Source: Candidatus Minimicrobia sp. QA0096
Lineage (GTDB): Bacteria > Patescibacteriota > Saccharimonadia > Saccharimonadales > Saccharimonadaceae
Length of the DNA: 32,000 nucleotides
Reading direction: 5' to 3'
Assembly (NCBI RefSeq): GCF_963967315.1
Contig: NZ_OZ017288.1
Coordinates: 90,001-122,000 of the forward strand
The notes under the pieces were generated by a model. That model did not search any database. It was not told where the DNA came from and saw only the letters and a program-made list of their open reading frames with translations. Shown here piece by piece: positions 8,935 to 18,861 of the stretch. How positions within the stretch are numbered: position 1 is the first letter of the stretch; every line of letters begins with the position of its first letter. A program made the position numbers and the translations under genes.

Positions 8935-9894
8935 TCATAAATCACGGATATTTGCAATAGCTAGGCGGACTTCATCGGTCGTCGTGGTGTGCATTAATTT
9001 CTCTCGAAGTTCCTTTGCGCCGTCAAAATCGCGAATATAAATCTTGAAAAAACGTTTTAGAGTTTCAAAAGGTCGCCCTAAAATCGGCTGGTAAGAATCA
9101 AATAAATCCAAGTGATAATTAAGAAGCGTCAATAGTTCTTCTTTGTGATTATCTGCGTCAGTTTTCGATTCACGGAAGCAGAACGGATCACTGAAAACGC
9201 CTCGCCCAATCATAATTCCATTCACGCCGGGATGCTTTCTGGTAATTTCCAAGCCATGTTCTCTGTCGCGAATGTCGCCGTTGATAGTCAAAAGAGTTTG
9301 TGGGGCAATTTCATCGCGCAGCTTAACAATCTCGTCAATCAATTCATAATGCGCCGCAACTTTGCTCATCTCTTTTTTTGTACGCAGATGAATCGTCAAG
9401 TTCACGATGTCTTGTCTGAGAATTGTCGTAAGCCACTCGCGCCACTCGTCGACATAAGTATAGCCCAGACGGGTTTTTACACTAACTGGCAATCCAGATT
9501 TTTTGGCGGCGTCAATTGCAGCTATCGCTATGTCGGGTCGGCGAATCAGAGCCGCGCCACCGCTTTTAATGGCAGATTTGGCGGGACAACCCATATTGAT
9601 ATCAATTCCGTTAAAACCAAGTTCCGCGCAGTGCTTAGCAAAAGCTTCCATATCTCCTGGCTCGCCACCCCAAATTTGCGCAATTAGTGGCTGCTCATCG
9701 TCGGTTTTAATTAATCGCCCAGCTATGGCTTTGTCGCCAGCGTGAACCCAGCCGGTAGCATTTGCGAACTCAGTGAAAAATATATCTGGTGCGCCAGCCT
9801 GTTTCACGACATGACGAAACACGACGTCAGTGACGGCTTCCATTGGTGCCAATATGAAAAATGGCTGCGGTAAATCATTCCAAAACGATGTCAT
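8935..9894 (-). CDS. dus: tRNA-dihydrouridine synthase
   Basis: 319 aa. Motifs FILAPMEAVTD and GIDINMGCPA, with a TIM-barrel FMN enzyme pattern. Confidence 0.88.
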   Translation of the reverse strand: MTSFWNDLPQPFFILAPMEAVTDVVFRHVVKQAGAPDIFFTEFANATGWVHAGDKAIAGRLIKTDDEQPLIAQIWGGEPGDMEAFAKHCAELGFNGIDINMGCPAKSAIKSGGAALIRRPDIAIAAIDAAKKSGLPVSVKTRLGYTYVDEWREWLTTILRQDIVNLTIHLRTKKEMSKVAAHYELIDEIVKLRDEIAPQTLLTINGDIRDREHGLEITRKHPGVNGIMIGRGVFSDPFCFRESKTDADNHKEELLTLLNYHLDLFDSYQPILGRPFETLKRFFKIYIRDFDGAKELREKLMHTTTTDEVRLAIANIRDL

Positions 9895-9911
9895 CTCTGT
9901 TATTTTATCAC

Positions 9912-9954
9912 AAAAAGGAGAAAACCCCTCACTCTCGTCTTTGAGAATGAGGGG
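9912..9954 (-). terminator. Strong intrinsic terminator ending the GC-rich RNA locus
   Basis: On the minus strand, the 12-bp stem CCCCUCAUUCUC / GAGAGUGAGGGG (including U-G pairs) has loop AAAGAC and is followed by UUUUCUCCUUUUU. Confidence 0.7.
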
Positions 9955-10266
9955 GATGGGGGCTCAAGCGGTTCTGCTCGGAGTTGATCTCAACGGTGAG
10001 AAAAACTGCCACGAGTGAATCTCGCGAACCCGAAACTGGGAGGGAAGCAAAACCCTTTGTTTTACTTCCCGGCGGACATGGAGGGAGTCGAACCCTCATC
10101 CTCACTCCTTATGGAGTAAGGGCACCGTTTTACATGTCCCTTGATTCTTTTCCGGATTACCGGCTGGCTGAATCACGCCAGGAGCGGACGGACGCTCTTG
10201 TGCTAACACTAAGTTAGCTTTTTCGTAGATTAAGATCTGCGACCGTCAGTTAGGATGGCTCAAAAT
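9955..10266 (-). ncRNA. GC-rich highly structured RNA of unassigned family (possibly a divergent or degenerate tmRNA-related RNA)
   Basis: A run of perfect hairpins read on the minus strand (10202-10218, 10182-10197, 10164-10181, 10152-10163, 10042-10070) surrounds a tRNA-like module and ends at a terminator. The region is open in several frames on both strands. Confidence 0.45.
10073..10139 (-). ncRNA. Closed tRNA-like module (tmRNA-TLD-like): acceptor stem and T-arm, with a 9-bp hairpin in place of the D and anticodon arms
   Basis: Minus strand reads GGACAUG-UA-AAACGGUG-CCUUACUCC-AUAA-GGAGUGAGG-AU-GAGGG-UUCGACU-CCCUC-CAUGUCC-G. There is a 7-bp acceptor stem and a canonical T-loop. No anticodon loop and no encoded CCA are present. 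Confidence 0.55.
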
Positions 10267-10449
10267 CTAGTTAGAAGACTTGAGCTCTCCCCTCTGGGCA
10301 GCTCGAGCATCGTCGCCCATCTTGCCGACATACTTGGCGGCTCGGTCATTCATGGCCTTCTGGGCGCTGTCTGCCGTTCCGTTCTGGACGGCTTCAGCAG
10401 CCTTACGGTATGCCTCCCGAGATCGGTCTTCAAAAAACACCGCCTTCAC
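10267..10449 (-). CDS. Possible small ORF (57-60 codons) in the GC-rich segment; may be an artefact of structured RNA
   Basis: GTG at 10449 or 10440, preceded by AAGAGGUGAAGG. The segment is about 60% GC by eye, against about 44% for its surroundings. I recognise no family. Confidence 0.3.
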   Translation of the reverse strand: MKAVFFEDRSREAYRKAAEAVQNGTADSAQKAMNDRAAKYVGKMGDDARAAQRGELKSSN

Positions 10450-10457
10450 CTCTTTCC

Positions 10458-10516
10458 TAAAAGAAAAGAGCTGACCTCATCTGTGCTCCTGGAGAGCACG
10501 ATATAGAATCAGCTCT
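10458..10516 (-). terminator. Intrinsic terminator of the helicase gene
   Basis: On the minus strand, the outer stem AGAGCUGA/UCAGCUCU and inner stem GUGCUC/GAGCAC are followed by UUUCUUUU. Confidence 0.6.
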
Positions 10517-10582
10517 ACCAACAAAAGCGTTTATTATAATAACACTAATTATAAAAAAATGCAACAATATACTAGAATATTT

Positions 10583-17399: not shown

Positions 17400-18713
17400 T
17401 TACGCTTTCTTGTCCAAAACCACAAGGTGCTCAATGTGCGGCGTTCTCGGGAAGAAATTGTAGCCTTGATGATGCGCGATTTCGTATTTTTCCTGAAGCA
17501 GGCTGACGTCTCGCGCTTGCGTGACTGGATTACAGCTCAGATAAATAATCCTAGGCGGCTCAGTTTCCAGCAGTCGATTAGTAACATCCGCGTGAAGTCC
17601 AGCGCGCGGCGGATCAACGATGACAATTTGTTCGCCCGTTATATATTCCAGAGATTTTTCGCTCGGCGCCAAAATCGCCTTGGCATTCGGTCGATTCAGC
17701 TTGGTGATATTCCTCTGCATTTCCGCGACGGCATGTTCGTTAATCTCCACCAGCGTCACGTCATCGCCTCCAATTGTCAAACCAATTGTTCCAACTCCAG
17801 AATAAAGGTCAAGGGTCGGCATTTTTTCACTGCAATCGATCCACGCTTTCATGTCGCTTAAAGCTTTTTCGTAAACGGGAATGTTGACTTGGAAAAATCC
17901 TTCGCAAGCGTAGTTGAAGGCGACGCCTAAAATCGTGTCGCTCAGTGTTGTGTCACCGAGTTTGTTCAAACGTTCGGTGATTCTACTGGCTGGGCTTTTG
18001 GGGTCGGAATAGATTATTTCGCCACCTTTGGCTGATAATAATTTGGCTTCATCGTCGGAAATCAGATTTTCTATCTTATCTTTTACGTACAATTGCCAGA
18101 CAGCGTTTCCCTGTTGATCTGAGCGAATCAAGAGTGTTTTTAATTGGCGAGCGACAATCGGCTTTTCTAGTAATAGGTTGCGGATTTCAATTGCCAATTT
18201 ATTTATGCTCGGATGTGCCAAGCTGGTTCCGTCAACGATGACCTTCCCTTTGCCGCCACGCTTGAAAAACGCCAAGTCTAAAGTTTCCTTTTCGTCGTCG
18301 TCCGTTTTGTCGCCAAACCAACTGAACTCGACTTTGTTGCGATAATTAAATTCCACGCCGTCGGAAAATACCTTGATTTTTTCAGGCAATGTGATGTTGT
18401 GAAGTAAAAAAGCCTCTTCGATTAGCGACGCTTTGTGTGATTGCTCGCTGGACATCGGCATTATTTGCCAAGGACTGGTGCTTAAATAGCTATTTTCATC
18501 CTTCGGTGTAATTCGCTCTGGGCTTTCCTCGATAATTTCCGCCACTATTCCTTCGACGAAGTGTGATTTTTTCTTTGTCACGCGAATCGTTACTAATTCA
18601 CCAGGCAGCCCTCCCCAGACGAATGCTTTGCGGCCGTCGTCAAGTGTCCCGATGGCTTGCCCGCCGCCAACGATTTTTTCCAATCTTAAAGTCTCAAAAA
18701 TTTGTTTTCTCAT
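17400..18713 (-). CDS. 23S rRNA (uracil-5)-methyltransferase, RumA/RlmD family
   Basis: 437 aa. N-terminal TRAM-like region, SAM motif LDLYSGVGTIG, and catalytic Cys in YLSCNP. Confidence 0.85.
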   Translation of the reverse strand: MRKQIFETLRLEKIVGGGQAIGTLDDGRKAFVWGGLPGELVTIRVTKKKSHFVEGIVAEIIEESPERITPKDENSYLSTSPWQIMPMSSEQSHKASLIEEAFLLHNITLPEKIKVFSDGVEFNYRNKVEFSWFGDKTDDDEKETLDLAFFKRGGKGKVIVDGTSLAHPSINKLAIEIRNLLLEKPIVARQLKTLLIRSDQQGNAVWQLYVKDKIENLISDDEAKLLSAKGGEIIYSDPKSPASRITERLNKLGDTTLSDTILGVAFNYACEGFFQVNIPVYEKALSDMKAWIDCSEKMPTLDLYSGVGTIGLTIGGDDVTLVEINEHAVAEMQRNITKLNRPNAKAILAPSEKSLEYITGEQIVIVDPPRAGLHADVTNRLLETEPPRIIYLSCNPVTQARDVSLLQEKYEIAHHQGYNFFPRTPHIEHLVVLDKKA

Positions 18714-18757
18714 TAGGTTATATTATATCAGGATGTGTGGATTTTTTCTGTCTGGCG

Positions 18758-18766
18758 TGCTATAAT
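18758..18766 (+). promoter_or_regulatory. Extended -10 promoter (TGCTATAAT) for tRNA-Gln
   Basis: TG at 18758-18759 and TATAAT at 18761-18766, 20 nt upstream of the tRNA 5' end. Confidence 0.45.
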
Positions 18767-18786
18767 CGTCATTGTCCTGGCAATAG

Positions 18787-18861
18787 TGGGACGTCGCCAA
18801 GTGGTAAGGCACTGGGTTTTGGTCCCAGCATTCGCAGGTTCGAATCCTGCCGTCCCAGCCA
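18787..18861 (+). tRNA. tRNA-Gln (anticodon UUG), CCA encoded
   Basis: Cloverleaf folded by hand. Acceptor UGGGACG/CGUCCCA, D-stem GCC/GGC, anticodon stem CUGGG/CCCAG with loop UUUUGGU (UUG at 18819-18821), T-arm GCAGG-UUCGAAU-CCUGC, then G-CCA. Confidence 0.93.

Follow-up and report, generated by a model that had tools for sequence, protein, structure and literature searches.

The element described here is a 67-nucleotide (nt) module on the minus strand (10139-10073) of a 32,000-nt stretch of DNA from Candidatus Minimicrobia sp. QA0096 (contig NZ_OZ017288.1, positions 90,001 to 122,000), which is referred to as the window. As judged from its sequence and that of its relatives, the module is a real and selected "top half" derived from transfer RNA (tRNA) or transfer-messenger RNA (tmRNA), and it is not a gene for tmRNA, nor does it decode as a tRNA would. 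It resides in the variable middle of the structured RNA that follows a small protein-coding gene, and the whole locus, from 10564 to 9912, is well supported as a single transcription unit that is specific to the oral Saccharibacteria (Nanosynbacter and relatives). tRNA-like modules are of a known kind. What is new is the form and its setting: the top half is tmRNA-like and closed, and it is found in the RNA 3' of a small-protein gene of bacteria, within a modular RNA that had not been described. No family in Rfam 15 covers this RNA, and no description of it was found in a literature search. An earlier note, made from the letters of the window alone, had considered an undescribed RNA and a messenger RNA (mRNA) with a 3' tRNA-like structure, and both suggestions are supported: no Rfam family reaches its threshold over the structured RNA, and the small open reading frame (ORF) upstream of the element is a real gene whose structured 3' RNA contains it.

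All features of the locus given below are on the minus strand. The acceptor stem of the module is a helix of 7 base pairs (bp) (GGACAUG/CAUGUCC, 10139-10133 with 10080-10074) with U8-A9 present, and the T arm (GAGGG-UUCGACU-CCCUC) occupies positions 10097-10081. The 45 nt between the 5' acceptor strand and the T arm include 11 unpaired nt, a 22-nt capped hairpin of 9 bp with an AUAA loop (10121-10100), and a 2-nt linker; a GG dinucleotide is found at 10126-10125. The capped hairpin occupies the position of the anticodon arm, or of helix P2 in tmRNA. G73 is at 10073 and is followed by a CCG trailer. When folded alone the module gave a z score of -5.0, and the fold drawn for it accounts for 89% of the ensemble. 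Across the loci, 33 distinct versions of the module were found. In an alignment of 25 diverse variants, 99.7% of the acceptor-stem and T-arm cells are paired, compared with 40-61% in slid controls, and 7 of the 12 pairs have changed on both sides. The T loop UUCGANN and the GG of the D region, which are the nucleotides that build the elbow of tRNA, are present in 33 of 33 variants. The middle arm, from the 5' acceptor strand to the T arm, is hypervariable and cannot be aligned between strains. Since compensatory pairing has been kept despite saturation of the synonymous sites of the small gene between clades (synonymous divergence, dS, of 1.8-2.4 or beyond estimation), we conclude that the top half of the module is under purifying selection where it is present.

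The module occurs in several types, which were counted in a census of 70 distinct complete RNAs. The combination of A3-U70 and G73 found in the window (type A) occurs alone in 39 RNAs, and one more RNA has A3-U70 with A73. G3·U70 with A73 (type B) is found alone in 6 RNAs and in tandem with type A in 4. Seven RNAs have G3-C70 with G73, and five of these have a Trp-like CUCCAAA loop. The other 13 RNAs have no strictly matching module, and three near-matches are included in this number: L080 and L081, which ARAGORN calls as tRNA-Trp, and L067, which has one T-stem mismatch. Also among the 13 is L064, with only a degraded remnant. The G·U at 3:70 is always found with A73 in all 10 distinct type-B variants, while pairs 4:69 to 7:66 change. 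In type A, G1-C72, G2-C71, and A3-U70 are kept in all variants and G73 in nearly all. G3·U70 together with A73 is the alanine identity set common to tRNA-Ala and tmRNA, and the GGA...G73 pattern resembles the anticodon-independent identity set of seryl-tRNA synthetase (SerRS). The retention of these two patterns hints at aminoacylation by synthetases that ignore the anticodon. The module trailers are CCG, CUG, or CCA; most copies have CCG or CUG, and in some relatives G-CCA is encoded after the acceptor stem. CCA is encoded by the genuine tRNA-Gln gene of the window.

Two relatives, L025 and L027, have a true D arm and a 12-bp capped helix with no anticodon loop, and their scores of 43.6 and 45.9 bits, respectively, are above the threshold of 29 for the Rfam tRNA family (RF00005). 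The window module scores below 17 bits against the same family; it has no D stem, its 11-nt D region is unpaired, and a 4-nt loop takes the place of the 7-nt anticodon loop. The tRNA identities given by ARAGORN among relatives are inconsistent (Glu, Ser, Arg, Trp, or unknown). The window locus and L001 encode identical small proteins and have different middle arms, and the middle arm of the window is shared with the L013 clade, in which the protein has 87% identity. These relationships point to recombination.

The RNA that carries the module is well supported as the sum of a conserved 5' core with five hairpins and two pseudoknots, a variable middle, and a conserved 3' core. The fold of the 396-nt stretch 10300-9905 gave a z score of -8.4 against shuffled sequences, and the z scores across the tested stretches were -4.3 to -8.4. 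A hairpin over the last codons and the stop codon of the small gene (H0, 10285-10258) is predicted from the fold, and a stop-codon hairpin of different sequence recurs in other clades. The five hairpins of the 5' core differ in the extent of their compensatory change. In H1 (10241-10224), 5 of 7 pairs have changed on both sides; in H2 (GCUAAC/GUUAGC, 10218-10202), 6 of 6, with 98% of the cells paired; in H3 (GAGCG/CGCUC, 10197-10182), 4 of 5, with 97% paired; in H4 (CUGGC/GCCAG, 10181-10164), 3 of 5; and in H5 (CCGG/CCGG, 10163-10152), which is missing in some clades, 2 of 4. An A-rich tract, AAAGAAUCAA (10150-10141), is found between H5 and the module.

The first pseudoknot (PK-a) is formed between GACGG (10247-10243) and CCGUC (10191-10187), the latter within the UCCGUC loop of H3. 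It is 98.8% paired in 33 sequences, and two of its five pairs are double-changed, as in GACAG with CUGUC and GACGA with UCGUC. In the second (PK-b), GAUUC in the loop of H4 (10174-10170) pairs with GAAUC (10147-10143), which is part of the A-rich tract AAAAGAAUCA, and the pseudoknot stops 3 nt short of G1 of the module. PK-b is 96.9% paired, and its changes are all compatible with G·U. The first module starts 2-3 nt past the PK-b strand in 75 loci. A covariance model (R1) that reaches from just past the stop-codon hairpin to the module gave one strong match per locus at 68-124 bits (40 bits for the rearranged L075), and in the window it matched only at 10250-10142. In the core alignment 94% of the cells are paired, compared with 20-51% when the 3' partners were slid, and 22 of the 37 pairs have changed on both sides.

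The module is followed by a 12-bp hairpin predicted from the fold (H6, 10070-10042) and by the C-rich single strand CUCCCAG; other modules occur here in other strains. The 3' core is a predicted three-way junction with limits of 10031-9960 (z = -6.6) that is closed by GGGUUC/GAGCCC. This closing helix covaries, and GGGCUC/GAGCCU, GGACU/AGUCC, and GGCUAG/CUAGCC were all observed. The motif CAGAACCGCU (9976-9967) does not differ among 19 of the 20 diverse loci shown, with L157 and L026 among the 19, and L155 has a single C-to-U change. No pairing partner was found for this motif. A long-range pairing of GCUCAAG at the end of the ORF with CUUGAGC in the 3' core was considered and dropped, as it is not conserved in other clades. 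The ORF, the four hairpins H2 to H5, the 67-nt element, H6, and the terminator had all been placed correctly in the earlier note, as was found by reading the minus strand directly. H0, H1, PK-a, PK-b, and the three-way junction are additions to its list.

The region between the two cores exchanges zero to two tRNA-like modules and several unrelated modules, with total lengths of up to 670 nt. In distant clades, extra structured modules of approximately 100-250 nt are found between the cores (L072, 2880-3260; L075, 730-960; L155, 3400-3760). Two of these distant-clade inserts begin with CCUCCGCUACAGG... and GGGGUAUGC..., and none matches Rfam. In the L075-L079 clade an inserted module takes the place of both PK-b and the tRNA-like module. 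The sequence GA(A)ACCGCU, which is similar to CAGAACCGCU, recurs between H1 and H2 in more distant clades.

The small gene, together with its Shine-Dalgarno sequence AAGAGGUGA (10454-10446), spans 10454-10267. The earlier note had left the start at either of two GTG codons, 10449 or 10440. The second is preferred because the ATG of the relatives is aligned with 10440, and the gene therefore consists of 57 codons from GTG 10440 to TAG 10269-10267. The search for homologues of the small protein gave 39 and then 125 protein clusters. In a comparison of 53 distinct alleles, variation was observed at 52 of 53 third codon positions, compared with 35 first and 32 second positions, and the pairwise ratio of nonsynonymous to synonymous divergence (dN/dS) is 0.05-0.26. 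By these sequence comparisons the ORF is a genuine protein-coding gene. The structure predicted by AlphaFold2 from 51 sequences is a three-helix bundle, with a predicted local distance difference score (pLDDT) of 84 and a predicted template modeling score (pTM) of 0.66. Nothing significant was found for the protein in Pfam and NCBIfam at E <= 10, in a profile search of the PDB, or in a Foldseek search of the PDB, and the source databases label it as a hypothetical protein. It is weakly basic and has no match to an RNA-binding fold. The C-termini are variable (..KSSN, ..LKK, ..KKW) and unlike degradation tags. The possibility that the ORF is a tag frame or a rescue factor similar to ArfA or BrfA was rejected, because a Shine-Dalgarno sequence and a start codon belong to the ORF itself and its product is a folded, conserved, weakly basic protein with variable C-termini.

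Two other observations concern this gene. An 83-codon ORF on the plus strand (10255-10506) overlaps it, and is taken to be a by-product of the GC-rich sequence because the codon-position pattern fits the minus-strand frame. A protein of 437 amino acids that is annotated as an integrase (P0149) is found in the same 90% cluster (that of P0032) as the 57-residue protein. There is no visible similarity between the two sequences, and the grouping is probably a clustering artifact.

The transcription unit is approximately 615 nt in length and is composed of a promoter-like block, a structured leader, the 57-codon gene, about 370 nt of structured RNA, and a terminator. The GC content is 0.51-0.55 in the locus, compared with 0.37-0.47 in the flanks, which agrees with the GC-rich character that had been noticed earlier; the increase is accounted for by the RNA stems and by an ORF that is rich in Ala, Gly, and Arg. 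The putative promoter (10564-10533) contains TTGCAT, a 17-nt spacer with TG, and TATTAT overlapping TATAAT, and transcription would start near 10525-10530. This block remains putative because a consensus promoter scan made no call on 10564-10533. It lies in a 50-nt AT-rich block (10533-10582) between the helicase stop codon (10585-10583) and the leader hairpin. The AT-rich block is 100% identical in all 16 close loci or strains, while the adjoining 3' end of the helicase gene varies, and TTGACA-17-TATNNT is found at the equivalent position in more distant loci. That the AT-rich block is better conserved than the coding sequence beside it was read as the mark of a strong promoter.

The leader (10517-10458) contains a hairpin (10516-10467) followed by a U tract. 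The predicted fold has a z score of -3.5, and compensatory variants were observed (GUGCUC..GAGCAC and AUGCUU..AAGCAU). In other clades the hairpin is enlarged to a three-way junction. It is present in L157, which has a different gene upstream in place of the helicase, and it is missing in L151 despite the presence of the helicase; for this reason it is assigned as the leader of the small gene rather than as a helicase terminator. The description of the locus as boxed in by two terminators is thus correct for the downstream side only, as the upstream hairpin also follows the conserved promoter-like block. The U tract of the leader is predicted to pair with the Shine-Dalgarno region, and this pairing may be regulatory. 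The unit ends with an intrinsic terminator (9954-9912) that has a 12-bp stem (9954-9925), a loop, and the U tract UUUUCUCCUUUUU; the stem covaries between clades.

The same gene order was found in approximately 90 Saccharibacteria contigs: a UvrD/PD-(D/E)XK helicase, the small ORF, 338-670 nt of noncoding sequence, and dus. These contigs are derived from human oral metagenomes and from genomes labeled Candidatus Saccharibacteria, Nanosynbacter, or TM7. In every case the small protein is encoded together with the RNA, with dus directly downstream. In distant relatives the small ORF still adjoins dus where the helicase has been replaced (L157, 49% amino acid identity), and in the L151 clade the spacer is only 160 nt. 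No integrase or mobile genes were found in the flanks of the approximately 90 loci, and a search of viral contigs found neither the small protein nor the locus. No further copy of the locus was found within the window. From the synteny, the absence from viral contigs, and the absence of repeats, the locus is taken to be chromosomal and vertically inherited, and not foreign DNA. An origin as a repeat or miniature transposable element was rejected on the single window copy and the single covariance-model match per locus, and a phage or mobile origin was rejected on the absence of the small protein from viral contigs. A viral scan with a 15-mer gave chance matches only, the query being too short. 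The match in Nocardia (L029) is spurious and partial, and dus is not nearby.

The closest known relative of the module is the tRNA-like domain of tmRNA. The two have in common an acceptor stem, a T arm, a D-loop analogue with GG, a helix that replaces the anticodon arm, and adjacent pseudoknots, and the type-B relatives have G3·U70 and A73. The 22-mer GGGTTCGACTCCCTCCATGTCC, which comprises the T arm and the 3' acceptor strand of the window module, is the exact 3' end of two tmRNAs called by ARAGORN in IMG/VR phage contigs, and a third tmRNA-like gene shares this 3' end. The two called tmRNAs begin with GGGCAUG at the 5' end, encode the tag AEDNVISYDFVSRDA(K)VALAA, and terminate in ACCA; relative to their tRNA-like domains, the acceptor stem of the window module differs by G3 to A. 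The L062-type module contains GAUUCUGGA, which is the D-loop motif of E. coli tmRNA. The differences from tmRNA are that the helix in the window is capped after 9 bp and that no mRNA-like domain, resume codon, tag frame, or PK1-4 is found inside it. The window copy also has A3-U70 (A10137-U10076), G73 (G10073), a CCG trailer, and a long 5' extension, and the module is dispensable in some strains. The Rfam tmRNA model (RF00023) aligns only over the tRNA-like domain, with 306 internal positions deleted, at 17 bits for the window and 22-25 bits for type-B relatives, relative to a gathering threshold of 47. At gathering thresholds, a search of the window and 18 loci with Rfam returned only genuine or near-genuine tRNAs, and a permissive search gave tRNA-clan matches confined to the tRNA-like domain, plus noise. 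ARAGORN made no call in this region of the window, though it called the phage tmRNAs in L090 and L092. Neither smpB nor ssrA was found in the window. The absence of ssrA says little, because the window covers about 5% of a typical Nanosynbacter genome of about 0.7 Mb.

Other systems resemble parts of the locus. Canonical tRNA (RF00005) shares with the module the 7-bp acceptor stem, U8, the T arm with UUCGANN, and the elbow nucleotides, and differs from the window copy in having a D stem and a 7-nt anticodon loop. In MALAT1 and MEN-beta the mascRNA-type module comes immediately after an A-rich tract that is bound up in a higher-order structure, and a comparable arrangement is proposed here. By its sequence the window module likewise has a tRNA top half with a 12-bp acceptor/T stack and an elbow and should be readable by RNase P. 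Those transcripts, however, are eukaryotic nuclear long noncoding RNAs with a triple helix, whereas the structure in the present locus is an H-type pseudoknot of 5 bp within the mRNA of a bacterium, with cleavage only proposed and with conserved RNA continuing past the 3' side of the module. The order of ORF, stop codon, pseudoknots, and tRNA-like structure in a 3' untranslated region is that of plant viruses such as turnip yellow mosaic virus and tobacco mosaic virus. In the viruses the structure forms the extreme 3' end, its acceptor stem is pseudoknotted, and it is aminoacylated; the acceptor stem in the present locus is a plain helix, and approximately 160-170 nt, including the terminator, follow the module.

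The jakobid mitochondrial tmRNA is also a closed tmRNA-like tRNA mimic with no coding domain. It keeps the alanine identity and is a stand-alone gene, whereas the window copy has no G3·U70 and forms part of a longer RNA. GOLLD and ROOL have conserved cores with variable inserts, and RNAIII has a small ORF with a long structured 3' domain; tRNAs are known to be associated with or embedded in GOLLD. There is no sequence or structure match to any Rfam model for these RNAs at E <= 10 over 1 kb. The suggestion of a Y-RNA-like RNA was not borne out: YrlA gave no Rfam match at E <= 10, no TROVE domain, as would be expected from a linked rsr (Ro60) gene, was found among the window proteins, and the topology is reversed, since YrlA is closed at its acceptor end and both of its termini lie on the anticodon side. 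A permuted (two-piece) tmRNA was rejected as well; in the module the 5' acceptor strand comes before the T arm, and closure is on the anticodon side rather than at the acceptor end.

The simplest role for the module is that of a processing signal, because the conserved parts are those that are read by RNase P, RNase Z, the CCA-adding enzyme, EF-Tu, and alanyl-tRNA synthetase (AlaRS). We tentatively favor, at somewhat less than even confidence, a function in which the module is processed by RNase P and RNase Z and thereby provides the mRNA of the small gene with a pseudoknot-locked 3' end. RNase P would cut at the 5' end of the module, near 10139/10140 (G10139), and RNase Z or an equivalent enzyme would cut 3' of G73. 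The upstream product would be the small-gene mRNA with a new 3' end, ..AAAAGAAUCAAG, that extends 3 nt beyond the PK-b strand. The mRNA left in this way, ending in ..GAAUCAAG, would be tied into PK-b and shielded from 3' exonucleases, by a logic analogous to that of MALAT1 and mascRNA, and the module would be freed as a small tRNA-like RNA. Type-B relatives, with G3·U70 and A73, should also be substrates for AlaRS.

Several points weigh against this proposal. The two cleavages are purely inferred. The module is dispensable, as is evident from the RNAs with no strict match (13 of 70, the three near-matches among them). PK-b does not need the module, because it is kept in the module-less L026, L070, L071, and L089, and RNAs of the L062 type have a module with no GAAUC. 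PK-b itself is argued from conservation alone, because the number of double compensatory changes in it is zero. A simple 3'-end maker is insufficient to explain the approximately 170 nt of conserved structure after the module. Finally, selection for aminoacylation is suggested by the type-B modules, because G3·U70 and A73 are kept while the neighboring pairs change.

Alternatively, the module may not be cut out and may serve instead as an interchangeable structural or protein-docking domain of a large noncoding RNA or ribonucleoprotein, perhaps an RNAIII-like regulator or a partner of the small protein, with the elbow as the docking surface. The conserved cores that flank a module-swapping middle, the single-stranded CAGAACCGCU and C-rich linkers that resemble binding sites, and the invariable association of the small protein, the RNA, and dus are consistent with this possibility. 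The weakly basic protein, with no match to an RNA-binding fold, does not favor it, and it does not account for the retention of a perfect and open-ended acceptor stem of 7 bp where any helix would do. We regard it as possible, if improbable. The retention of identity elements would be explained if the module acted in trans as an aminoacylated, anticodon-less tRNA-like RNA, either as a paralogue of tmRNA reduced to the tRNA-like domain that works with SmpB and EF-Tu or as an amino acid donor outside translation. All 10 type-B variants have the alanine set, type A keeps a SerRS-like pattern, the two types are in tandem in four RNAs, the best Rfam alignments are to the tRNA-like domain of tmRNA, the 22-nt 3' end is identical to that of real tmRNAs, and G-CCA is encoded in some relatives. 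The window copy with A3-U70 and G73 is not a substrate for AlaRS, however, the CCA has decayed to CCG or CUG in most copies even though the tRNA-Gln gene has its CCA, the module is absent from about one-fifth of the distinct RNAs, and smpB and ssrA are not linked to the locus. Such a function in trans is unlikely. Its fuller form is quite unlikely: release of the modules from the 3' RNA of the small gene, in these genome-reduced epibionts, as aminoacylated mimics (type B with alanine, type A maybe with serine) that are tmRNA paralogues of the tRNA-like domain only, with roles in ribosome rescue, as amino acid donors, or as decoys, and with the recombining middle arm under diversifying selection.

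Decaying tRNA pseudogenes, now neutral in the spacer, could account for relatives that still score as tRNA, for the loss of the D or T arm in L064, L067, and L073, for lineages in which the module is wholly absent, and for the degraded CCA trailer and the inconsistent ARAGORN identities. Neutral decay would have destroyed the stems, whereas 99.7% pairing is retained, with 7 of 12 pairs double-changed across synonymously saturated clades and with the T loop and GG invariant, and we hold this explanation to be rather improbable. The earlier note had also raised a decayed remnant or attachment (att) site on foreign DNA, here taken as the scar of an element that targets tRNA or tmRNA genes. Whole-module replacement 3' of the module between strains and the higher GC content relative to the flanks are in its favor. 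The locus is syntenic in about 90 contigs with no integrase in the flanks and no viral copy, its stems have evolved by compensation, the GC excess has the explanation given above, and both halves of the module are present, whereas an att scar keeps the 3' half only; this origin is highly improbable. A highly divergent but functional ssrA, which had been listed as well, would fit the weak 17-bit match to the tRNA-like domain of the tmRNA model, the nearby pseudoknots and ORF, and the lack of a canonical tmRNA in the window. It is extremely improbable and is refuted on anatomy. Only the 9-bp capped hairpin, with no tag frame or string of pseudoknots, is found between the acceptor strands, and the ORF and pseudoknots are 5' of a closed domain. 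The ORF is provided with a separate Shine-Dalgarno sequence and start codon, and its product is a conserved folded protein with C-termini that are not tag-like. The module is absent in some strains, and the doubts expressed from the outset about a canonical tmRNA (A3-U70, G73, no CCA, and acceptor strands only 60 nt apart) were well founded.

Saccharibacteria and other bacteria of the Candidate Phyla Radiation have tiny genomes. With this locus the Saccharibacteria gain a large, covariation-backed structured RNA that is linked both to dus and to a conserved three-helix protein with no annotation, and a tRNA/tmRNA top half has been found that is kept by selection outside translation in bacteria. 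If the proposed processing by RNase P and RNase Z is correct, the locus would be a bacterial counterpart of the MALAT1-mascRNA route to a protected mRNA 3' end. Charging of the Ala-type relatives, should it occur, would make them a new kind of tmRNA paralogue. The transcriptome paper on TM7x reports no validated small RNAs in that strain. Saccharibacteria are now cultivable and naturally transformable (PMC10633639), and both outcomes are therefore directly testable.

Several related genes were observed on phage contigs. L090 (1628-2015) and L092 (6654-7040) are AT-rich phage contigs with full tmRNA genes, in which the last 22 nt before ACCA are the 3' half of the window module; the hosts of these phages could be Saccharibacteria. 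L091 is a GC-rich viral contig of 150 kb with 37 tRNA genes within 7.7 kb, and at 400-770 it has a tmRNA-like gene (5' GGGCAUGCCCGGUUUCGAC..., 3' ...GGGUUCGACUCCCUCCAUGUCCA) with no ARAGORN call. A phage contig, L158 (8717-8855, minus strand), has a tRNA-like gene, GGGCGCA...UGUGUCCA, with G3·U70, to which ARAGORN is blind. The T arm and 3' acceptor strand of this gene are as in the L025-type module, and approximately 70 nt of extra sequence is found between the D arm and the T arm.

Within the window, the only canonical tRNA is tRNA-Gln (UUG) at 18787-18861, and in the stretch 17400-18861 it adjoins a gene of the tRNA (uracil-5-)-methyltransferase family with a TRAM domain. On the minus strand at 9894-9925, directly after the U tract of the terminator, an extended -10-like sequence, TGTGATAAAAT, is located 7 nt upstream of the ATG of dus (9894), and dus may be translated from a leaderless mRNA. 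The string GTGATAAAATAACAGAGATG in this stretch is almost invariant among the Nanosynbacter-like loci shown.

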